This document shows, piece by piece, positions 4,265-45,235 of a DNA stretch of 64,000 nucleotides. The position numbers and the translations under genes were made by a program. Source of the DNA: Acidobacteriota bacterium (GTDB lineage Bacteria; Acidobacteriota; UBA890; WLXD01); the NCBI GenBank assembly GCA_963666055.2, contig CAXWPH010000015.1, positions 640,001 through 704,000 on the forward strand. Reading direction: 5' to 3'. Below the pieces are notes generated by a model, which had not been told where the DNA came from, searched no databases, and saw only the letters and a list, made by a program, of their open reading frames with translations. Position 1 is the first letter of the stretch. Each line of letters starts with the position of its first letter.

Positions 4265-4630
4265 ATGGCTGACTACTTGTTGCTCTACCAAGGCGGCGAC
4301 CCCAACTGGCGGGACCAGCGAACAGCGGAGCAGATGCAGGCGGTGATGCAGGAATGGGGCGCCTGGTTCAAGGAGCTGGAGGCCTCTGGGCAGCTGCGTA
4401 ATCCGGGGGCGCCGCTGCTGCCGGAAGGCATCGCCCTGAGGCGCGACGGCGATGGGTTCGCCACCGACACCACGATGGCCGAGGTGAAGGAGCTGATCGG
4501 CGGCTACTCGGTCATCACCGCCAACTCCCTCGAGGAGGCCTCCTCGTTGGCCCAGGGCTGCCCGTTCCTCAACTACCATCCCGAAGGCGCCGTGCTGGTC
4601 AGGCCGGTAATGTCGATACCCGAGGGCTAG
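4265..4630 (+). CDS. YCII-related (DGPF-like) protein
   Basis: YLLLY...W.AWF..L...G.L...GAPL and KELIGGYSVITANSLEEA...AQGCP...VLVRPV. The TAG stop lies within the CTAG of a repeat element. Confidence 0.85.
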   Translation: MADYLLLYQGGDPNWRDQRTAEQMQAVMQEWGAWFKELEASGQLRNPGAPLLPEGIALRRDGDGFATDTTMAEVKELIGGYSVITANSLEEASSLAQGCPFLNYHPEGAVLVRPVMSIPEG

Positions 4631-4899
4631 CAGGCCGTAGTGTGGCGGGCCTGGATACGGCGAGCTGGGGCCGGATACAAGGCGGCCTGACACAGGCGAT
4701 GCCCTAGCCATCGTCGAAGAAGGCCAACGCCGCAGATGGCCCCAAATCGCCGTAACCCTTCGGGCGACAGGGGGTTGCGCGCCTATGCTGCGTCGTTCCT
4801 CGTCAACGATGGGGGTTCCATCGCCTTCTCCTCTCTCCTTGCCTCCCCCTCGCAAGACCCTGTCGCCAGACCCACCATACTTTCACCACGGCCTGCTAG
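4627..4899. mobile_element. CTAG-flanked MITE-like element, copy 1 (273 bp)
   Basis: CTAG at both ends, TIRs CTAGCAGGCCGT.../...ACGGCCTGCTAG (left TIR has a 6-bp deletion). Homologous to 40348-40625 and 42748-43160. Confidence 0.9.
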
Positions 4900-6179
4900 T
4901 CTCCACTGCCGGCGCGTCGCACCTGCTGGGCGATGAACTCGCGCTCGTGCTCGGTGCGCGCCTGCGACAACGCCTGGTCCAAGAACGCGTCGGCCGGCTG
5001 CTGGTAGCCGGCTCGCGCGTACAGGTTGGCGAGAACGGCGGCAACCGCATGGCTATGCGTCAACTTGCCTTCCTCGCGAATAGAGTCGACCAGCGGAATC
5101 GCTGCCTCTGGCCCGTCTCGGTACGAGATCGCCACCGCCCGGTTCAGCTCCACCACCGGCGATGGCGCAGCCTCCCGCAACCGGTCGTACAAACGACAGA
5201 TCGACTTCCAGTCGGTCTCTGCGAACGTTGGCGCCGAGCAATGGCGTGCCGCGACCGCCGCTTCGAGATGAAAGCGGCTGGCAGCAACCGCTTCCATGGC
5301 CGAGGCTCGGGCGAGATCGTCATATCCGAGGCGAATCAACTCCTGGTCCCACAGCGATCGGTCCTGCTGATCCAGTGGAACCAGGCGTCCAGCCTCATCG
5401 AGCCGCGATCGCAGCCGAGCCGTGTTGAACCGCATGATCGCAAGAAGAGCGATTGTGTCGCTGCTGGCGAGCCCAGGAGTCTCCGCTAGCAGGAGCGTCA
5501 GCTCCAGCGCGTCGTGACAAAGCTCCTTGAGAATCGGCTGATCGCTGGTCGACAGGTACCCCTCGTTGAACAGCAGATACAGCGAGGTGTGGACGGTGGC
5601 CAGCGCCCCTGCCCGGTCTTTCTCTGTTGGAATGACGAACTCCAGGCTTCGTACCTGACGCCGCGTTCGGTACAGACGCTTGTTGATGGTCGACTCGGTG
5701 GTGAGCGGGGCGCGCGCGATCGCCGGGACGCTCAGCCCGCACAGAGTCTTGAGGATGAGCGTGGTGCGGTTCTCGGGGGTTAGCGACTGATGACAGCACA
5801 TGAAGATCATGCGCAGCTGGTCATCGCGAATGCCTTGCTCTTCGAAGGCCTCGTCGACCGTTGGCGACAGCGTCCACTCGCTGTCGAGGTAGACGGCCAG
5901 GTCGTTGGCGAAGGTGCGCCGCGTGCGCTCGCGTCGAATCACGTCGATGGCGCGATTACGAGCGGTCGTCAACAACCAGGCACTCGGGTTGTCCGGAATT
6001 CCCTTGCGCGCCCAGCTGTCCATGGCGCGCACGAACGACTCCTGAACGACATCCTCTGCCAGATCGAGGTTGTGCGAGCCGAGGATGCGCGTCAGCACCG
6101 AAATCAGGCGGCGCGACTCGCGCCGGAACAGCATCTCGATCTCGTCATTCGGTGCCGCGCTAGTATCTGGTGCTTCCAT
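4896..6179 (-). CDS. ECF sigma-70 factor with C-terminal TPR-like extension (ECF42-like)
   Basis: AEDVVQESF...PDNPSAWLLTTARNRAID, DDQLRMIFMCCH, YLLFNEGY, QDRSLWD, ELNRAVA motifs. Confidence 0.9.
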   Translation of the reverse strand: MEAPDTSAAPNDEIEMLFRRESRRLISVLTRILGSHNLDLAEDVVQESFVRAMDSWARKGIPDNPSAWLLTTARNRAIDVIRRERTRRTFANDLAVYLDSEWTLSPTVDEAFEEQGIRDDQLRMIFMCCHQSLTPENRTTLILKTLCGLSVPAIARAPLTTESTINKRLYRTRRQVRSLEFVIPTEKDRAGALATVHTSLYLLFNEGYLSTSDQPILKELCHDALELTLLLAETPGLASSDTIALLAIMRFNTARLRSRLDEAGRLVPLDQQDRSLWDQELIRLGYDDLARASAMEAVAASRFHLEAAVAARHCSAPTFAETDWKSICRLYDRLREAAPSPVVELNRAVAISYRDGPEAAIPLVDSIREEGKLTHSHAVAAVLANLYARAGYQQPADAFLDQALSQARTEHEREFIAQQVRRAGSGD

Positions 6180-10866: not shown

Positions 10867-10894
10867 CTAGCAGAGTTCTTCAGCACCCTGCTAG
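10867..10894. mobile_element. Collapsed CTAG-flanked mini-element (20-bp body)
   Basis: Reverse complement is CTAG-CAGGGTGCTGAAGAACTCTG-CTAG, matching the TIR at 42842 (CTAGCAGGGTGCTGAAAAACTCTG) with one mismatch. Confidence 0.75.
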
Positions 10895-12621
10895 AAGGCG
10901 CTGTCGGCCAGCGTGATGACGCGGCCAGGAAGCGCCCCGGTCAGGCGGCCTTCCTCGACGACAGCCTCGCCCCCGACCAGCACCCACTCGACGCCCTCGG
11001 CAAACTGGTGCGGCTCGCTGAACGTCGCCCGGTCGCGAATCCTCTCGAGATCGAAGACCACGAGGTCCGCCACCAGGCCCTCACGTACCAGGCCCCGGTC
11101 GTTGAGCCGTAGCACCTGCGCCGGTAGCGATGTCGACGTGCGCACCGCCTGTGCGACGCTGAGCGCCCCCAGCTCGATCGCGTAGCGCCGAATCTTGCGT
11201 GGAAAAGTCCCGTAGTAGCGAGCGTGAACCGGAAGCTCATCCTCGACTACCGCGACGCCGGCGTCGGAAGCGGTCAGCGTGTAAGGCTCGGCCGCCAGAG
11301 CCTCGACGTCGACCTCGGCGAGCGAGAATCCGCGCAGGCGAGCGCCACCCGGGCGCGTCGTGAACCCCTCGAGCTGAAGAAGGATCGCCGCCTCGATGGG
11401 TTCGACCCCACGATCGCGGGCGAGCTGAGCGAGCGACTTGCCGACTTGTGTCGGGTCCGAGTACTCGAAGATGAAGATCTGCTCGGCCCCACCGCGGCGA
11501 TCGATCTCACGGCGGACGTCGCGCCCCAGGTCGGCACGGAGGGCGTCGTCGTCGAGGACATGGCGCAAAGTGGCGGCGTAATCGGGGTCGGCGGCTTCCT
11601 CGTCGCCACTCTCGCCCCAACGATCGTAGCCCAGCGCCCATGGCGGGATCAGCACTGTGTTGCCGTCGCTTCCCGTAGTCGTGTACGGGTACTGGTCTAA
11701 CCAGATCTCGACGCCGCGGGCGCGCGCCGTCCGCATCAAGTTGATGATGGCGCCGCTAGAGCCCCAGTAGTCGGCACCTTTCACCTTGATGTGGGTGGCC
11801 ACCGTGGGGACACGCGTGGACTCGGCGATAAGAATCGTCTCGACGATGTTGTCGAGCATTGTCGGCGGCCCGGGCTCATGCCGGCTCGGCAGATACCACA
11901 TGGGGTCGGCGCCCGAGGCACGCTCGTGCACGATGTACACGCCACCGGTATCGGTGAGCGTCGATACCAAACTGAGCACCTCGGAGGTATCGCTCCATCG
12001 CCCCGGTACGTATTCGAGCCCCGCGGACAGGCCGTAGGCGCCCTCGGCGATGCCCTGGCGCACCATGGCGGCCATGCGCCGCACCTCATCGTCGGTCGCC
12101 AGACGTCGAAAGTCGGGCCCGAGCACCTCGCGGCGAATGCTGTTGTGGCCCACCAGCAGAATGGTGTTGGGGCCGGTACCGAGGTCTTCCAGGGTGGCCC
12201 GTTGCCGGGCGATCGACAGCGGGCTGCCGCCGTCCTGATTGACCACCACCGTGGTGATGCCCTGGCTGACCAGGTTCGGTGCGCTGCGCTTGTGTGGATC
12301 CGGTGCACGCAGCCCGCTGCGTTCTCCGTCGGGACCATCGGCGTGCGAGTGCATGTCGATGAAGCCGGGGGCGACGATCTTACCAGCGACGTCGATCACG
12401 CGGTCGGCGGGCGCCCCACTCAGCCGCCCGACGGCAGCGATGCGCCCGTCCTTGATGCCAACGTCGGCGTAGCGCCATGGATTGCCCGTGCCGTCGAGTA
12501 CCCGGCCGCCGACGAGCAACAGGTCGTAGCCGTCGGCCGCGAGGGTCGAGCCACCGGTGGCGACGGCGAGCAACATCGTCAGTGCCAGCGCCCCGCCGTG
12601 GCCAACAATTCGCTCGTTCAT
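10891..12621 (-). CDS. Exported N-acyl-D-amino-acid deacylase-like amidohydrolase
   Basis: Signal peptide, GGRVLDGTGNP, PGFIDMHSH, GLSAGLEY, DQYPYT, YGTFPR, ADLVVFD. ATGA overlap with the upstream gene. Confidence 0.88.
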   Translation of the reverse strand: MNERIVGHGGALALTMLLAVATGGSTLAADGYDLLLVGGRVLDGTGNPWRYADVGIKDGRIAAVGRLSGAPADRVIDVAGKIVAPGFIDMHSHADGPDGERSGLRAPDPHKRSAPNLVSQGITTVVVNQDGGSPLSIARQRATLEDLGTGPNTILLVGHNSIRREVLGPDFRRLATDDEVRRMAAMVRQGIAEGAYGLSAGLEYVPGRWSDTSEVLSLVSTLTDTGGVYIVHERASGADPMWYLPSRHEPGPPTMLDNIVETILIAESTRVPTVATHIKVKGADYWGSSGAIINLMRTARARGVEIWLDQYPYTTTGSDGNTVLIPPWALGYDRWGESGDEEAADPDYAATLRHVLDDDALRADLGRDVRREIDRRGGAEQIFIFEYSDPTQVGKSLAQLARDRGVEPIEAAILLQLEGFTTRPGGARLRGFSLAEVDVEALAAEPYTLTASDAGVAVVEDELPVHARYYGTFPRKIRRYAIELGALSVAQAVRTSTSLPAQVLRLNDRGLVREGLVADLVVFDLERIRDRATFSEPHQFAEGVEWVLVGGEAVVEEGRLTGALPGRVITLADSAF

Positions 12622-15119
12622 GAGCCGCTCGTCAGCCTCTTGATCTCGTCGTCGTAACCGGTCATCTCCCAGCGCGTCAACGAGATCGGGATGAGACCCG
12701 CGGCCAGGAACTCGTCGATGAACTCGCGCAGATTGAATTCCGTCCCCAGCTGCATGGCGCGATCGCGGAACAGCTTCATGAAGTGCGCCTTGCCGAGGAC
12801 CACACCCGTGTGGAACGCCGGGAACCGCAGGTTGGACTCCATCTCGAACCAGACCATGGGTTCGTCTTCGTGCGACCAGCCATACGGCATGATCTCGGCA
12901 CAATAACGTCGCGCCTCGGCGAGCGTCATCTCGTTGCTGTGCATCTTGAAGTCCGGTAGCGACAGGCTCATGTGCGAGGCATTCATCAGATACTCGATCT
13001 CACGACCTCGCTGCGGTCGCTCGTCGAGCACGCCGGCCACCATCAGCAGCTCTTCGAGCGCCACTGCCCAGCCCTCGGTGCGCACCCAGTCCATGTTGTA
13101 TTGGCGCTCGACGCCACGAATCGGACGGTTGTCGAGCTCGGCTCGCTGGTAGTCGAACATGTGGCCGATGAACTCGTGTGTCTCGCCCGGCAGCACCTCA
13201 CGCTCGCGCGCCTTGTGGTCGATGCTGGGATTCTCCGGCAGCGGACCTCGCTCCTCGGATGGATCGCTGTAGTCGGTGGGGTCGAGCCAGTCCGGTACCG
13301 TGAGGATCTCTTCGTCGCGAAGAAACTCGACGACGTACGCGAGCGCCTCATCCAGCCGCTGATAGTACTTCTCTGCCGTGTCGGCGACCTCGAGAGGCGG
13401 TAGCTTGCGGTTGCGGTGCTCTTCGAGCTTCAGGAACGTGATGATGCGACTGTATTCGTGCTGCACGATGCCTTGCGCCTCTTCCCAGGTGTACGGGACC
13501 AGGTGCACGTTCTTCAGCCACCAGTTGTAGTTGTCGATCCCGATACCGGCTGGGCCGGTCATGCGGCTCTTGTTCAGCTCGATCCAGTGCCCGTATTCCT
13601 CGACCGCGTTGCGGGCGCGCTCGGCATCCTCGACCAGGTCTGGATGGTGCTCTCGCAAGCCAGCCGCGAGCCTCCCGTAGACCGACGCCTCGCGCTCGTA
13701 ATAGTGCAGCGCCAGCAACGCCAGATCCTCGGGCACGTCGACGAGGTTGCCCTGCGCTTGTTCGTACAGGCGCGGTACCGCACGCAACGAGGCGGTGAAC
13801 TCGGCCAGCCGATCAGTCGACAACGGAAACCGGGCTCGCCGCAACGCCGTGAACCCCGCCATCGCCGGTCCGCCACCGCCTTGCGTGGGCAGGTAGAAGA
13901 CCGGATCTCGCGACCAGGGCCGTAGCACGCGGTGATAGAAGTCCAGCCCGTTCATCTCCCCCCGCACCAGGTGGTAGTCGACCTTCTGCGAGACCGGCCA
14001 GGAGGCGATATCGAGCGCCGCCAACCGACGCTGGTACTCGCCGAGCTGGCGATGCTGGCGCGACATCGTCGCGGCGGTGTAGTCGGGCATGCCATCGATC
14101 ATCTCGGGCCCCTGAGAGGCACGGAACTCTTCGAACAGCGCCACCAGGTCCTCGTAGCGGCTGCCCACCGATGCCGTCTCGCCGCCGACGGCGAAGGGCG
14201 CGAAGTGCTCCTGCAGCAATTCGTTGAGCGCCTCTGCGGCCTGTTCCGGCACCCAGTGGCCCACCCCCTCGAGAATCTCGAATCGGTACGGCCCCTCGAC
14301 GAAGCTTGCGGTGAGCTCGGCACCCTCACGCCCCAACGCGACGTCGTCGGTGCTCCATACGTACATGGTCGGCATGGCGATGGGCGTGACCTGGCCGGCG
14401 CCGGTCTGCAGATTCATGGCCCGATACCAGTTCAACGCCGCACCGAGAGCTTCGCGGGTGCCGAGCAAGTCGACGTATTCCTGTATCTCGCTCGGGCTCA
14501 GCCCGGCGCCGCCGTAAATCCCCCGCAGCATCGCCGCATCGTTGGCCAGGAAGAGATCCTCCGACCCGTCTGCGCGGAATACGTCCATGTACCCGGACAT
14601 CTGCGCCTGCTGTCCTTCCGGGTCGGCTAGCGCCTGGCCGAACGCGTACGGGTGCGGAACGGAGATCGGCACCAGCGAGAGCACGCGATCCGGGTGCATG
14701 AGACCCACGAACCACGCCACGGCCGCGCCCCAGTCATGACCGACGATGTGGAAGGTGTCTGCACCCACCGCGTCGGCCATGCCGATGATGTCCGCGACCA
14801 GGTTAGGAATGGTGTAGGCCTCGACACCTTGTGGACGCGCCCCGGGCGAGTAGCCACGCTGGTTGGGTGCTATCACCCGGAAACCCATCGAGGCGAGCTT
14901 GGGAAGCTGATGGCGCCACTCGAAGGAGGCCTGAGGAAAGCCATGCAGCATGAACACCACCGGCCCGTCTTCCGGCCCGGCTACCAAGGCATCGAAGACG
15001 AGCTCGCCGACTTCGATTTTCACTTTGTCGGCCATCGAGAACCCGGCCGTTGGAGACACCACGGTCAGCAACAACGCCACGATCGTTAACACCGCAGCAC
15101 GACAAGCAACTCTGTTCAT
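12618..15119 (-). CDS. Exported alpha/beta hydrolase (epoxide hydrolase-like) fused to a DUF885-like domain
   Basis: N-half: LHGFPQ, NQRGYS, GHDWGA, GHWVPEQ. C-half: KVDYHLVRGEMNGLDF.HRVLRPWSRDP, HEFIGH, EGWA. Start ATG 15119; the longer track ORF is an antisense extension over the next gene. Confidence 0.8.
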   Translation of the reverse strand: MNRVACRAAVLTIVALLLTVVSPTAGFSMADKVKIEVGELVFDALVAGPEDGPVVFMLHGFPQASFEWRHQLPKLASMGFRVIAPNQRGYSPGARPQGVEAYTIPNLVADIIGMADAVGADTFHIVGHDWGAAVAWFVGLMHPDRVLSLVPISVPHPYAFGQALADPEGQQAQMSGYMDVFRADGSEDLFLANDAAMLRGIYGGAGLSPSEIQEYVDLLGTREALGAALNWYRAMNLQTGAGQVTPIAMPTMYVWSTDDVALGREGAELTASFVEGPYRFEILEGVGHWVPEQAAEALNELLQEHFAPFAVGGETASVGSRYEDLVALFEEFRASQGPEMIDGMPDYTAATMSRQHRQLGEYQRRLAALDIASWPVSQKVDYHLVRGEMNGLDFYHRVLRPWSRDPVFYLPTQGGGGPAMAGFTALRRARFPLSTDRLAEFTASLRAVPRLYEQAQGNLVDVPEDLALLALHYYEREASVYGRLAAGLREHHPDLVEDAERARNAVEEYGHWIELNKSRMTGPAGIGIDNYNWWLKNVHLVPYTWEEAQGIVQHEYSRIITFLKLEEHRNRKLPPLEVADTAEKYYQRLDEALAYVVEFLRDEEILTVPDWLDPTDYSDPSEERGPLPENPSIDHKAREREVLPGETHEFIGHMFDYQRAELDNRPIRGVERQYNMDWVRTEGWAVALEELLMVAGVLDERPQRGREIEYLMNASHMSLSLPDFKMHSNEMTLAEARRYCAEIMPYGWSHEDEPMVWFEMESNLRFPAFHTGVVLGKAHFMKLFRDRAMQLGTEFNLREFIDEFLAAGLIPISLTRWEMTGYDDEIKRLTSGS

Positions 15120-28950: not shown

Positions 28951-29472
28951 TCAACGTGCCCGCAGCGCCAGGACGAGAGCCTCTCGGCCGGACGGCACGG
29001 CGACGCGCGTCGGAGGCCCGGCCAGCTTAGCCGGCACCGACAGTTGCTGCAGGGCCGCGCCGGTTTCGACATCGAGAAACTCCCCCGTCATCGACCGGGG
29101 CAACTTCAGTAAGAGCTCTGAAGCCAGCGTGGTTTCTTCCATATACACGATGACCTGGTCTCGGCCGAACAGGCCGAATGTCGGTCCGGGTGACCTGGCT
29201 CCACGGAAGTACTCGGAGCCGGGCGGCATTCGGATGAAGATGACATCCTCCCACGCCAGGTTGCCCAACAGTGCGCTGAGCCTTCCCGGTGTCGCCTGGA
29301 GGATCCGATACAGGTGGTCTAGCAGGCCGTGGTGAAAGTGTGGTGGTTCTGGATGATAGAGGATCGCGATGTCTAGCGGCCCGCCCTCTCCGGCGATCAC
29401 CCAGTAGCGTGTCCGCGGCGGTATCGTCAGCAGAAAATCGGCGTCGACGCAGTGCACTGCGTTGTCCGGCAA
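28951..29472 (-). CDS. Hypothetical protein (probably a fragment) carrying an in-frame repeat-derived segment
   Basis: Open 173-aa frame with a TTG start; residues PPHFHHGLL are encoded by the element TIR at 29319-29352. Confidence 0.4.
   Translation of the reverse strand: MPDNAVHCVDADFLLTIPPRTRYWVIAGEGGPLDIAILYHPEPPHFHHGLLDHLYRILQATPGRLSALLGNLAWEDVIFIRMPPGSEYFRGARSPGPTFGLFGRDQVIVYMEETTLASELLLKLPRSMTGEFLDVETGAALQQLSVPAKLAGPPTRVAVPSGREALVLALRAR
29319..29376. mobile_element. One-ended remnant of the CTAG element
   Basis: CTAGCAGGCCGTGGTGAAAGTGTGGTGGTTCTGG (33/34 match to the family TIR), with a second CTAG exactly 54 bp later. Confidence 0.75.
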
Positions 29473-40347: not shown

Positions 40348-40625
40348 CTAGCAGGCCGTGGCGAAAGTGTGGTGGGTCTGGCGACAGGGTCTTGCGAAGT
40401 GGAGGCAAGAAGAGAGGAGGAGGCGATGGTTACCCCATCGTGGACGAGGAACGACGCAGCATGCGCGCGCAACCCCCTGTCCCCGAAGGGTTACGGCGAG
40501 TTGGGGCCATTTGCGGCGTTGGCCTTCCTGGACGATGGCTAGGGCATCGCCTGTGTCAGGCCGCCTTGCATCTGGCCCCAACTCGCCCTAACCAGACCCA
40601 CCACACTTTCACCACGGCCTGCTAG
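40348..40625. mobile_element. CTAG-flanked MITE-like element, copy 2 (278 bp, opposite orientation)
   Basis: 34-bp TIRs CTAGCAGGCCGTGGYGAAAGTGTGGTGGGTCTGG (1 mismatch); reverse-complement homology to copy 1. Confidence 0.92.
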
Positions 40626-40636
40626 GAGGCCCGACC

Positions 40637-41641
40637 GTGCGAACTCGACGGGAATTCTGCTTTGACGCGGGAGCAAAACTGATGGCACTGAGCGCAGTAA
40701 CCAGCGGCAACTCGCTCGCCAACCGGGCCCAAGGCACAGGCCTGGTCTACGACGCCCGCTACCTGGACCACGTCCTCGACAGTCGGGTCGGGGATCCGCA
40801 TCCTGAGCGGCCGCTGCGTCTCGAGAAGATCATGGCGATGCTGGAGACGCGTGGGCTGCGCGACCGGCTCGTGCCGGTGGCGCTGCATGATGATCCGATG
40901 CCTCACATTCGTGACCACCACACCGCCGAGCACGTCGGCGCGGTGGGTCAGATCGATGTCACCGGGCCTGTGGCAGAGCTGGCGGTAGCGGGGGCGCTGG
41001 CTGCGGTGGATGCCGTGGCAACCGGCACGCTGCGCAACGTCTTCTGCGCCGCCCGCCCCCCCGGACACCACGCCAACAACACCGGCATGGAAGAGGGGTT
41101 CTGTTTCTACAGCAACGCTGCGATCGCGGCGAAATACGCCCAGCAGGTGCACGGCTACGAGAAGCTCCTCATCGTCGACTGGGACTACCACCATGGCAAC
41201 GGTACCCAGAACGCTTTCTACGACGACCCCACGGTGCTGTTCTTCTCCACCCACGACTGGCAGGCGTACCCGGGAACCGGCGATCCGTCGCTCTTGGGAG
41301 CGGGCGATGGCACCGAGCTCAACATCAACGTGCACCTGGATTGCGGCTGCAGCGACCGGGACATGCTCGGCAGCTGGGACCGCAAGCTCATGCCCAAGGT
41401 CGAGGCCTTCAAGCCCGACTTCATCATCGTGTCAGCGGGATTTGACAGCCGCATGGACGATCTACTTGGCTGCTTCAACGTTACCGACGACGCGTTCCGC
41501 CGTATGACTCGCACCGTCATGGACATGGCCGATCATTATTGCGATGGACGCGTCGTTTCGTTGTTGGAGGGCGGCTACAACGTCGACGGGCTGGCGCTGG
41601 CAACAGCGGCGCACCTGGAGACACTGCTCGATCACGGCTAG
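40637..41641 (+). CDS. Histone deacetylase/acetylpolyamine amidohydrolase family protein with a Tat-like signal
   Basis: TRREF N-terminus; HPERPLR, RPPGHHA, GFCFYSN, DWDYHHGNGTQ, SAGFD, LEGGY. Confidence 0.92.
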   Translation: MRTRREFCFDAGAKLMALSAVTSGNSLANRAQGTGLVYDARYLDHVLDSRVGDPHPERPLRLEKIMAMLETRGLRDRLVPVALHDDPMPHIRDHHTAEHVGAVGQIDVTGPVAELAVAGALAAVDAVATGTLRNVFCAARPPGHHANNTGMEEGFCFYSNAAIAAKYAQQVHGYEKLLIVDWDYHHGNGTQNAFYDDPTVLFFSTHDWQAYPGTGDPSLLGAGDGTELNINVHLDCGCSDRDMLGSWDRKLMPKVEAFKPDFIIVSAGFDSRMDDLLGCFNVTDDAFRRMTRTVMDMADHYCDGRVVSLLEGGYNVDGLALATAAHLETLLDHG

Positions 41642-42639: not shown

Positions 42640-42747
42640 ATTCGCACCTCGTTTGTTAGAACCGGAAGGGCGCGCGTCTCGTCGTCGCGCCTGGCATCCG
42701 CACCCATTTCGCCACCACGATATGCAAGGATCATCTGTTACAGGCTG

Positions 42748-43160
42748 CTAGCAGGCCGTGGTGGAAGTGTGGCGGGCCTGGTTACGGCGAGTTGGGGCCA
42801 GATGCAAGGCGGCCTGACACTGGCGATGCCCCGGCCATCGTCTAGCAGGGTGCTGAAAAACTCTGATGGGTCTGGCGGGTGGGTCTTGCTGGCGAGATCA
42901 AGGAAGAGCGACGAGGGCGATGCCAGGGTCATCGTCGAGGAGCTCTGACGCTGAGATCGCCAGCAAGACCCACCCGCCCAACGGGTTACGCCGCAGACGG
43001 CCCCAAATCGCCGTAACCCTTCGGGCGATAGGGGGTTGCGCGCGTATGCTACGTCGTTCCTCGTCAACGATGGGGTAACCATCGCCTCCTCCTCTCTCCT
43101 TGCCTCCGCCCCGCAAGACCCTGTCGCCAGGCCCGCCACACTTCCACCACGGCCTGCTAG
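42748..43160. mobile_element. CTAG-flanked MITE-like element, copy 3, containing a nested element
   Basis: Perfect 34-bp TIRs CTAGCAGGCCGTGGTGGAAGTGTGGCGGGCCTGG; colinear with copy 1 except for an insertion of about 145 bp. Confidence 0.92.
42842..42987. mobile_element. Nested, one-ended related element
   Basis: Begins CTAGCAGGGTGCTGAAAAACTC; 22-bp perfect stem GGCGGGTGGGTCTTGCTGGCGA / TCGCCAGCAAGACCCACCCGCC encloses the same core module. Confidence 0.8.
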
Positions 43161-45235
43161 ACGAGATCCCGCGGGATCGTGTCGGCCCACTCCTTCTCGT
43201 ACTGCAGCTCGCCGTCGACTCGCAGCTCACGCCGGACGCTGATCTCGAAAGTCTTCTCGTCGCTCTCGAGGGTCATCCAGGAGTTGCAGGTGATCACGCG
43301 GCCGTCCTTCCGCACCTCGTCGCGGCCCTCGGCGACGATGGTGGCGTGCGCCGGATCCCGGTCGCTAGCGGTGGACCAGCGTCGCTCCATGCTGCCGTAT
43401 GCCGGCTGGATCGTTTCCCGAAACACCGTCACGGTCTGCTTCATCTCGTCGCGAATGACCTCCCACTGGTCGATGGGTCCAGGCCCGGCCAAACCCTGGA
43501 CTTCGACGATCTCGGGAGGCTCGTAGGGCCGCGACCGGGCGCTCGCCGACATGACCGGCAGGACGATGCGGGAGGGGTGATCGGCGTCGACGTGCAGTTT
43601 GGTCGTCATCCGATACGGCGTCGGCCACAGGTTGGGGAAATCGGCGTTGGCGATCGCCACGCGCACCCTATGCCCCTTGGGAAACACCCAGGAGATGACC
43701 TTGAGGTTGAACTTCAGCTCGTAGATCTCACCCGGGGTCAACGGCTCGGGATCGACGTGCGAGTCACGATGGGCACCGTTGATAATGCCCTTGGTCACCA
43801 ACGTAGAGGTTCCGTCGGGGGCAACGTCACACAGGCGGACGATCCAGTTCGCTACCGGCGCGCTGGCGGATACGTGCAGAATCGCCTGTGGGAAGCCGAG
43901 GATTTCGAAGCTGGCTTCCAGCGGCACGGTATCGAAGGTCATCGCGTAGGCGTCGTCGGCGCGCTGGTCGATCGGTAACTCGGCCGCGTTGTGCGGGCAG
44001 CGGTAGCGGTTGGTCATCCCGACGGTGGGCTTGTACTCGAGCTCCGACTCATGGTCGAACGTCCGCTCGCGCCCCAGGACTCCCTCTGGCTGCGGATACC
44101 AGGTCACTGCGTCGATGCCCTCCGGTGGCCAATCGGTGTAGCGCCACTCCCCCGGAATGTTCTCGAGCTCCAGGCTGGGCTTGTACGAGTTGTTGACGTA
44201 CATCGCCAGCCGTGGCTCCTGCATCAGCCCGGTGTCGTTGTCCTTGAGCCAATGATCCCACCAGCGCAACATCTCGGGTTTGGGGTTATACGGTGGCCCC
44301 GGCTTGCCGATCGAGTGCGTCCACTGGCCAATGATGGCGCGCGTCGGGACCGACATCCTCTCGAGCATGCGCGGGATGCTGTCGGTATAGGCATCGATCC
44401 AGCCGCCGATCATCATCGTCGGGATCTTGATGGCGGCGTAGTCGGGACGCAGTGACATGCGCTGCCAGAACTCGTCGTTGCGCTGGTGGCGCAGCATGTC
44501 GAAGACCCAGGGCTGGTGCTCTACCCGGTAGCGCGCCTCCTCGGTGTCCGGGTCGTAATCGGGCCAGGCCGGCAATCCCATGTTGGAGATCATCGAGAAC
44601 GGCCAGCGGCCAAGCGACTCGAACTGTAGCGCCCCGTCGTAGTAGACGATGTCGTCGGTGAACACATCGTCGGTAGCGTGCATGGGCACGATCGCCTTCA
44701 GCGCCGGCGGCTGCATCATCGCGACCTGCGTGGCGTTGAAGCCGCCGTAGGATGAGCCGAACATGCCGACGTTGCCGTTGCTCCATGCCTGGGTCGCCAA
44801 CCACTCGATGACATCGAGGGCGTCTTCACGCTCCTGAACCGAGTACTCGTTGGGCGTCGTCCAGCCGGCGCTCGTGCCAGTGCCGCGTACGTCCACCTGG
44901 GCGACCACGTAGCCGCGCTCGGCGTAGTACCCGAAGCTGCCGAGTTGATCGGATTCGGTGCGTCGGTACGGGTCGTAGCTGAACAGAGCGGGGAAATTAT
45001 CGTCCGGGCCGGCGCCCTCGGGCATCACCAGCCGGGCGGCCAGACGCACACCGTCGCGCATGGGGATGAAAGCGAGCACCGAGCGCGCCCCGAAGCGCGG
45101 TTGGCTGACCTTCTCGGTCCATGGAGCAGCGCTGGCTACCCCGCCGAGAAGTTGCGCCGCGCCAGCCCGAGCACTCAGCAAGCTAGCCCCGGCGATCGAA
45201 CCGGCCTTGCCGAGAAAATCCCGTCGCGTGTCCAT
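43157..45235 (-). CDS. Tat-exported CocE/NonD family hydrolase
   Basis: TRRDFL signal, MRDGVRLAA, DPYRR, GSSYGG, GGWID.Y, GQWTH, ADFPNLWP. Confidence 0.92.
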   Translation of the reverse strand: MDTRRDFLGKAGSIAGASLLSARAGAAQLLGGVASAAPWTEKVSQPRFGARSVLAFIPMRDGVRLAARLVMPEGAGPDDNFPALFSYDPYRRTESDQLGSFGYYAERGYVVAQVDVRGTGTSAGWTTPNEYSVQEREDALDVIEWLATQAWSNGNVGMFGSSYGGFNATQVAMMQPPALKAIVPMHATDDVFTDDIVYYDGALQFESLGRWPFSMISNMGLPAWPDYDPDTEEARYRVEHQPWVFDMLRHQRNDEFWQRMSLRPDYAAIKIPTMMIGGWIDAYTDSIPRMLERMSVPTRAIIGQWTHSIGKPGPPYNPKPEMLRWWDHWLKDNDTGLMQEPRLAMYVNNSYKPSLELENIPGEWRYTDWPPEGIDAVTWYPQPEGVLGRERTFDHESELEYKPTVGMTNRYRCPHNAAELPIDQRADDAYAMTFDTVPLEASFEILGFPQAILHVSASAPVANWIVRLCDVAPDGTSTLVTKGIINGAHRDSHVDPEPLTPGEIYELKFNLKVISWVFPKGHRVRVAIANADFPNLWPTPYRMTTKLHVDADHPSRIVLPVMSASARSRPYEPPEIVEVQGLAGPGPIDQWEVIRDEMKQTVTVFRETIQPAYGSMERRWSTASDRDPAHATIVAEGRDEVRKDGRVITCNSWMTLESDEKTFEISVRRELRVDGELQYEKEWADTIPRDLV

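Follow-up and report, generated by a model that had tools for sequence, protein, structure and literature searches.

A covarying hairpin core common to MITEs with unrelated ends in an Acidobacteriota genome and in other bacterial phyla

The window, a 64,000-nt stretch of the source genome G000 (an Acidobacteriota bacterium; G000:C15:640001-704000), carries three elements, E1, E2, and E3, built from terminal inverted repeats and hairpin arms. The arms are named A, B, C, and D2, and the MITE ends are classed as types T1 to T4; the features are as follows.

4628..4898, unstranded: element E1, a T1 MITE with two arms, its left end shortened by a small deletion
4664..4747, plus strand: complete module, arm A, core at 4695 (module model, fold)
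4774..4855, minus strand: complete module, arm B, core at 4806 (module model)
40349..40624, unstranded: element E2, a complete two-arm T1 MITE
40392..40473, plus strand: complete module, arm B, core at 40422 (module model)
40499..40582, minus strand: complete module, arm A, core at 40532 (module model, fold)
42675..42750, minus strand: T3-type MITE relic (IS630-like end plus half a D2 arm) adjoining E3 (94% over 78 nt)
42749..43159, unstranded: composite element E3, from TA to TA, a T1-type MITE interrupted by a T2-type MITE
42749..42782, plus strand: left terminal inverted repeat of E3, type T1
42783..42842, plus strand: truncated arm A, with CAAGG at 42805 and core at 42822, cut at the nested insertion so that the 3' half is missing
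42843..42993, plus strand: nested T2-type MITE fragment that combines an IS5-type left end with arm C (97% over 152 nt against a T2 copy)
42885..42968, plus strand: complete module, arm C, core at 42916 (77.7 bits with the module model, for which this arm was itself a training sequence; fold z -8.9)
43017..43025, plus strand: junction mini-hairpin CCC-TTC-GGG (CCC-GAA-GGG on the other strand)
43034..43116, minus strand: complete module, arm B, core at 43067, with a degenerate inner helix (module model)
43126..43159, minus strand: right terminal inverted repeat of E3, type T1

The nested fragment in E3 comprises 151 nt of a T2 element, and the T1 element resumes at ~42988-42993. The right end of E3 provides the TAG stop of a peptidase gene, 43157-45235(-), and each end of E1 provides the TAG stop of one of two convergent genes, 4265-4630(+) and 4896-6179(-). 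Smaller traces also lie in the window: a ~27-nt mini-element at 10868-10894, formed by a single T2 end with a CTAG site on either side and located at the stop codon of gene 10891-12903(-), and a solo, armless T1 end repeat at 29320-29345.

Seven GGCGATG-N7-CATCG cores (4695+, 4807-, 40422+, 40533-, 42822+, 42916+, and 43068-) are present where a first-pass annotation of this DNA had placed them, with the five distinct loop sequences it had listed (CCCTAGC, GAACCCC, GTTACCC, CCCCGGC, and CCAGGGT); a one-mismatch pattern search of the window returned 13 core matches, against 1.31 expected. The covariation of the inner helix (GGCCT/AGGCC versus AGAGC/GCTCT) was also borne out, as were the two arms in opposite orientation joined by CCC-TTC-GGG and the consequence that two-arm elements hold one sense module on each strand. 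The layout ascribed to every arm holds for the six complete modules recognized by the module model, but not for core 42822, which has no 3' half because a second element starts at CTAG 42842-42845. The commonest arm type, B (4806, 40422, and 43067), has no Watson-Crick inner helix and folds no better than shuffled sequences (z -0.8, +0.4, and -0.3), whereas arms A and C fold far better (z -4.7 to -8.9). Two further details needed revision. The span originally marked, 42781..43140, leaves out the terminal inverted repeats of an element that runs from 42749 to 43159, and the loop described as an invariant 7 nt has that length in 219 of the 230 complete cores of G000, but is 6 nt in a further arm type and 2-12 nt across phyla. 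Genome-wide in G000, 217 cores have a 7-nt loop, and each other loop length from 3 to 12 accounts for 2-14 cores. The hairpin module is real, and it sits inside gene-less, TA-flanked MITEs.

There are 137 inverted-repeat pair calls in G000, falling into four end types (with partial overlap between the T3 and T4 calls) and mostly 160-280 bp long; the usual lengths are ~170 bp for one arm and 270-280 bp for two. Of the 137, 124 have CTA as their left flank and 125 have TAG as their right, and in the 24 elements without CTAG flanks the bases outside the TA vary independently on both sides, which fits TA target-site duplication. None of the 136 elements with gene context lies inside a predicted gene; by our own rough gene calls, 63 of the 136 are at a TAG stop codon, and 36 lie between convergent genes, compared with 569 of 3349 intergenic gaps. 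TAG ends 1701 of the 4736 predicted genes, which helps explain insertion at stop codons; CTAG itself occurs in G000 at ~0.29 of its expected frequency. Insertions are polymorphic among relatives: E2 is absent at the matching site in G017 and G019, the E3 region is absent in G018 and G020, and G019 carries an element where the window has a bare CTAG (41638-41641). Four DNA sequencing runs yielded no clean same-strain empty allele. The elements are thus short, non-coding, and bounded by inverted repeats, with TA duplications, IS-like ends, and insertion polymorphism, as is characteristic of MITEs.

The loop of arm A contains a CTAG in at least 60 of 88 cases, and 13 nested junctions fall at that loop CTAG, providing a route by which ends and arms could be exchanged. 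Related arrangements elsewhere in G000 include four tandem T1 left halves, each joined at the arm-A loop CTAG (G000:C11:160026-160413), an IS630 copy abutting a degenerate T1 end (G000:C6 near 346000), and, at several element ends, T1, T2, and T3 elements sharing one CTAG site, as they frequently do.

The ends resemble those of autonomous IS elements of different families. The first 20 nt of the T1 consensus have no mismatch to the ends of an IS1182-like element of 1.5 kb in G006 (its transposase is best matched by the IS1182 model, at a score below the cut-off); T2 ends have 1/20 mismatches to IS5-family elements in G016 and G021, the G021 transposase being above the IS5-family cut-off; and T4 and T3 ends have 4/20 and 6/20 mismatches, respectively, to the resident IS630 of G000. 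A tblastn search of G000 with the T1 and T2 partner transposases gave no match at 1e-4, and these partners are known from relatives. The end-matching IS elements do not contain the module, as searched with the module model; among 18 IS loci searched in this way, there were one separate MITE (L251) and a weak 16-bit match (L245:2805-2863) near the end of an IS-like element. Judged from sequence, the core is not what deletions in the matching IS elements left behind, and it is common to elements with at least three transposase types. Another candidate end donor, the eight-copy IS5 of G000, was rejected, having ends unlike T1-T4, and G000 has no match to PF13751. We also note that module-bearing elements at L110 and L166 have ends that by eye are like those of an IS1380 in L097, a possible fourth transposase family, and that the 5.1-Mb genome of G016 has 146 DUF772 transposase matches, a very large IS expansion.

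Across arms, the consensus reads outer helix, CAAG-G-M, a 5-bp helix, GA-S-RN-(N), a GGCG stem-loop CGY, N-GA-S'-GA, helix, R-ACG-C-N-G, and outer helix; conservation resides in the long, irregular helix, which contains tandem G·A pairs, and in the outer internal loop CAAGG-M / R-ACGC-N-G. Among 107 distinct matches across phyla, the M and R positions, which the pattern leaves free to vary separately, are CA in 68, AG in 36, and something else in three, and S/S' is CG in 67, GC in 33, and otherwise in seven. Loop length, expected from the first-pass annotation to be constant, is 7 nt in just 14 of these 107 matches. For covariation analysis we aligned 88 arms (alignment A2: six G000 arms plus 82 chosen among 123 distinct candidates by removing near-duplicates, apparent chance matches, and L055 by eye). 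Predicted pairs are formed in 84.2% of cells against 57.9% in shuffled alignments, and the covariation score is 0.60, against 0.17 when shuffled and at most 0.14 when slid. Under a rough tree-aware null, 17 column pairs exceed the maximum, of which 13 are predicted partners and four are cross-pairs from one stem swap. The 13 include S/S', a lone pair between two G·A tandems, and the non-canonical M/R (CA 52, AG 35, and AA 1 in the 88 arms), and the A·G/C·A swap occurred ~16 times on the tree. About one-third of arms have a tandem GA/GA in place of two Watson-Crick pairs of the middle helix. The covariation is strong, and it upholds the earlier proposal that the module preserves its structure rather than its sequence, to a far greater degree than a passive MITE core would require. 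PMC8450098 lists AG and AC among isosteric sheared-type pairs, which GC never forms; the corresponding edge assignment of M/R is putative.

Of 26 genomes from the order, 17 contain the module pattern, for which controls gave no match; a second pattern occurs in 21 of 251 genomes of the phylum (one being the unpublished G071). Reading three of 64 parts of a GTDB scan gave 114 loci, from which we estimate ~2700 stretches overall, with ~5 of the scan matches looking like chance. According to the titles of the scan records, the module is present in at least 10 phyla, its holders including Acidobacteriota, Planctomycetota, Myxococcota, Streptomyces, Omnitrophota, Nitrospirae, and Bdellovibrio, and also Sulfurimonadaceae, Spirochaetaceae, Krumholzibacteriia, Eisenbacteria, Gammaproteobacteria, and Bacteroidota. 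One Acidobacteriota record (L107) carries the same end repeat as the G000 elements. A TA-ended inverted repeat surrounds 42 of the 107 distinct matches, with many others at contig ends, and many unrelated ends have 55-57 nt between the terminal TA and the CAAG of the module. A pattern restricted to the outer loop matches 143 of 301 genomes of the Gammaproteobacteria class, many of them singly and by chance (two of the single matches being in the unpublished G407 and G562); in 13 of these genomes there are 20-46 matches, and the reversed control never gives more than three. The inner hairpins listed in the gammaproteobacterial matches are wholly different, so the outer loop is the constant part and the 7-nt hairpin a lineage trait. 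Viral contigs gave no match to the strict module pattern, and a looser motif pattern matched at control level. In one Planctomycetota genome, module elements form head-to-tail arrays with 245-bp and 165-bp spacing (L104 and L142).

Elements of this kind invite comparison with known families of small repeats. For ERIC and Correia elements, the module model was used, which was built without enterobacterial or neisserial sequence. With filters on, it has no match in the whole E. coli K-12 chromosome. With filters off, it matches the ERIC position in seven of nine loci, which had been chosen with a pattern containing part of the motif, and the best four E. coli matches are ERIC copies (20, 17, 13, and 12 bits; rough E 7e-4 at 20 bits and 5e-3 at 17 bits), with the outer loop alone aligning. 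Three ERIC copies fold the outer loop in the same register, and the E. coli K-12 ERIC has a GCG/CGT-type inner hairpin flanked by GA; like the module elements, ERIC (also IRU or RU-1) of enterobacteria is an intergenic TA-ended hairpin MITE (PMC2229807). It differs in being 127 bp with one arm, a longer middle helix, and different ends, in having no GA-S-GA double tandem, and in placing the loop ~26 nt from the end rather than 55-57. For Correia, 23 loci were collected by the published end pattern and 16 were searched with the module model, which matched two on the motif (19.4 and 14.9 bits); the better match also aligns the GA-C-GA tandem, and the motif letters are visible in other copies. 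Minimum-energy folds of five Correia copies, two of them cut short, do not form the outer loop. Correia elements (CREE, NEMIS) of Neisseria are likewise TA-ended MITEs, and copies collected by the published end pattern have CAAGGCG...GCAACG directly inside the end repeat; they have one arm and no 5-bp middle helix, and the long form has an IHF site and promoters (PMC2649163). The model scores are weak (19-20 bits at best); the outer-loop link to ERIC appears good and that to Correia suggestive. By their ends and dimensions, the elements here belong neither to ERIC nor to Correia: the 127-bp single hairpin, consensus, and ends of ERIC are not found in the window elements, nor are the 26-bp end repeat and 105-157-bp length of Correia/NEMIS, and the window-element ends are unrelated to Correia ends.

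Another parallel is given by MITEs that IS5, IS1182, and IS630 transposases mobilise in trans, with RUP and IS630-Spn1 as the type case, which are gene-less, have IS-matching ends and TA flanks, reach high copy number, cluster, and insert into one another (PMC2229807); the core here differs in not being a leftover of the matching IS and in spanning at least three transposase types. In the Bacillus cereus group, bcr1 is a mobile ~155-bp repeat with two cruciform-like stem-loops kept by compensatory changes, according to PMC3184786, and it has 5-bp direct repeats, in contrast to the TA here. The module elements of Streptomyces deviate from the 55-57 nt spacing, as do ERIC and Correia. REP sequences, IS200-IS605 ends, and attC sites are imperfect hairpins read on one single strand; the elements here differ from these in their IS-type end repeats and in having no associated Y1/RAYT gene or integrase.

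The window and 18 loci have no Rfam match at the gathering threshold, and the remaining Rfam matches are at chance level. A consistently flanking transposase, HUH/RAYT, or tyrosine recombinase gene, which the first-pass annotation had suggested looking for, did not emerge: in the 133 frames scanned out of 138 neighbouring ones (those dropped were one very short frame and four that overlapped or lay next to apparent chance matches; many of the rest may be shadow frames), no family recurs at more than three loci, and there is no RAYT, tyrosine recombinase, or reverse transcriptase. Three neighbours are transposon related: an IS1380 inserted at a MITE's CTAG (L097), an adjacent IS91 (L070), and an IstB-like frame (L131). 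In L070 (621-1776) the module lies just upstream of the IS91-family (Y2) transposase on the opposite strand, probably by adjacency. The Y1 (RAYT) transposase profile PF01797 has no match in G000, which is 95.7% complete. A kink-turn reading was rejected because the register does not fit, and likenesses to IS91 targets and primosome sites are unsupported. From three metatranscriptome runs we obtained four short contigs belonging to related elements; they say nothing about expression.

Among 72 two-arm copies that are 96% identical to the consensus, private mutations are about equally frequent in all parts: 17 at 54 motif sites, 56 at 155 other internal sites, and 26 at 68 end sites. A tree-based version of this comparison did not find motif sites spared on internal branches (Fisher p 0.88), and the private-mutation test has low power; resident copies appear to drift about neutrally. 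Orientation is far from random. Arm B is on the gene strand at 36 of 42 co-directional sites (p 3e-6), comprising 23 of 25 leading and 10 of 13 lagging sites with four unassigned, and it is on the leading strand at 14 of 17 convergent and five of nine divergent sites. Elements with a single arm have no sense bias (B only 4:5; A only 2:4; there are 17 B-only elements in G000), and Rho-loading as the cause of the bias fails on the B-only elements. In G006, assessed by eye in 20 regions, one arm type is on the leading strand in ~11 of 14 elements and on the gene strand in four of seven co-directional cases, and the favoured arm is the other positional type than in G000. Of 70 junction loops, eight fit only DNA-type stable triloops and two only RNA-type tetraloops, a weak lean. 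The orientation data fit single-strand exposure, and also RNA effects.

The explanation that we tentatively prefer, while holding it open to real doubt, is that the module may be a docking site specific to one strand, probably of single-stranded DNA, where a general host protein would bind and aid copying of the element. Only one strand is predicted to adopt this fold, an irregular long helix in which Watson-Crick and tandem G·A pairs are combined with the outer CAAGG-M / R-ACGC-N-G loop, since the complementary strand has T·C mismatches at those places, and the fold would form when that strand is exposed, in a lagging-strand template or a transcription bubble. The reader would be a host factor rather than a transposase, the simpler choice because the transposases differ, and selection would act at the mobilisation step and not on each resident copy; since resident copies drift, long-term conservation is more simply explained in this way. 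Consistent with such a docking site are the MITE anatomy, the IS-like ends, the presence and absence in relatives, the helix covariation, the sense module on each strand, the spread across phyla, and the module-free IS elements, together with the leading-strand bias in convergent pairs (14/17) and the lean to triloops (8 to 2), although the latter may be plain G-to-A drift. DDE transposases act on double-stranded ends, so a single-strand step is not required. Further evidence also pulls away from docking: the commonest arm, B, is degenerate, yet 17 B-only elements exist; G006 favours the other arm type; and the 55-57 nt spacing fails for ERIC, Correia, and Streptomyces elements.

Some of these observations point instead to RNA, and a role at that level is a close rival, if somewhat less likely: read-through transcripts would fold the module, and a host RNA-binding protein or nuclease would dock on it, tuning the processing or stability of the neighbouring mRNA or lowering the cost of insertion, with two arms giving a sense copy either way. 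Orientation follows the gene strand (36/42, p 3e-6) even on lagging-strand genes (10/13), 63 of 136 elements are at stop codons, the junction is of UUCG type on one strand, and RNA isostericity accommodates both the tandem G·A pairs and the A·G/C·A swap, the swap being typical of RNA motifs (PMC8450098). ERIC reportedly destabilises upstream mRNA in an orientation-dependent manner and Correia stems bind RNase III (PMC2229807, PMC10969869, and PMC2649163), precedents that count against the docking site on DNA. An RNA role fits less well with the absence of depletion of private mutations at motif sites, with single-arm elements that have no sense bias (4:5 and 2:4), and with G006, where arms are on the gene strand in only four of seven co-directional cases; insertion sites are lineage-specific, so no host gene depends on the module. 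The drift of resident copies would suit passive inheritance, in which one ancient hairpin was ancestral to all and fold-back repair or gene conversion keeps a functionless structure paired, and nesting (the 13 junctions at the arm-A loop CTAG) and chimeras such as E3 can move a core to new ends unselected. We consider this quite unlikely: fold-back repair gives perfect Watson-Crick palindromes, not G·A tandems, a fixed G·T wobble, and an A·G/C·A swap made ~16 times, and the outer loop stayed fixed even though the inner hairpin was wholly replaced.

More improbable still is an RNA intermediate, with the motif as a self-processing structure or one that recruits reverse transcriptase. A fixed, 3D-like motif common to mobile elements with unrelated ends is known from non-autonomous retro-elements, and no autonomous IS examined carries the module; however, the ends match those of DDE transposons, the flanks fit TA duplication, no reverse transcriptase is found among the 133 neighbouring frames, and no Rfam ribozyme matches. 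The first-pass annotation had also raised a recombinase-like site with inverted 6-7-bp arms and a 7-bp spacer. Such a duplex site for a recombinase or repressor, or a REP- or attC-type site for an HUH enzyme or integrase, accords with the 7-nt spacer in 219 of 230 complete cores of G000, but we regard it as highly improbable. Spacer length varies between 2 and 12 nt across phyla, where the arm letters also covary, the G·T wobble and same-strand G·A pairs exist solely in a folded single strand, and G000 (95.7% complete) and the 133 frames have no Y1 transposase and no tyrosine recombinase, respectively; a fixed spacer with a recombinase or a cassette array, as in attC systems, is not seen.

What the first-pass annotation had put forward as an undescribed system survives in part. 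The carriers are ordinary MITEs of a known kind, and the apparently new part is the core shared among MITE families, which none of the titles and abstracts listed by full-text literature searches describes. In two reviews (PMC2229807 and PMC11602168), the cores of bacterial MITEs are either particular to one family or what IS deletion leaves behind, and the way these elements move is described as unresolved. A broader version of the docking-site explanation, which we offer as somewhat doubtful speculation, is that a single folded signal of ancient origin is common to ERIC, Correia, and thousands of MITEs yet to be catalogued, and is read by a conserved host protein on single-stranded nucleic acid; this would be a transposase-independent mobility enhancer, passed between IS5-, IS1182-, IS630-, and IS1380-type ends, and would explain their high copy numbers. 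If true, a core spanning phyla and transposase families would bring ERIC, Correia, and many repeats without names together in one superfamily and would point to an unrecognised host factor. The shared core defines exact test mutations, in the A·G/C·A pair and in the lone pair between the G·A tandems, and as E. coli K-12 carries ERIC, the question is experimentally approachable.

Finally, in a lone long hairpin elsewhere in G000 (L016; G000:C14:532880-533130; fold z -10; 28 bits), the outer loop is present, the middle helix is extended, and the inner hairpin is GGCGTA/TACGT; L016 has no recognised end repeats and is in form between the local module and ERIC.
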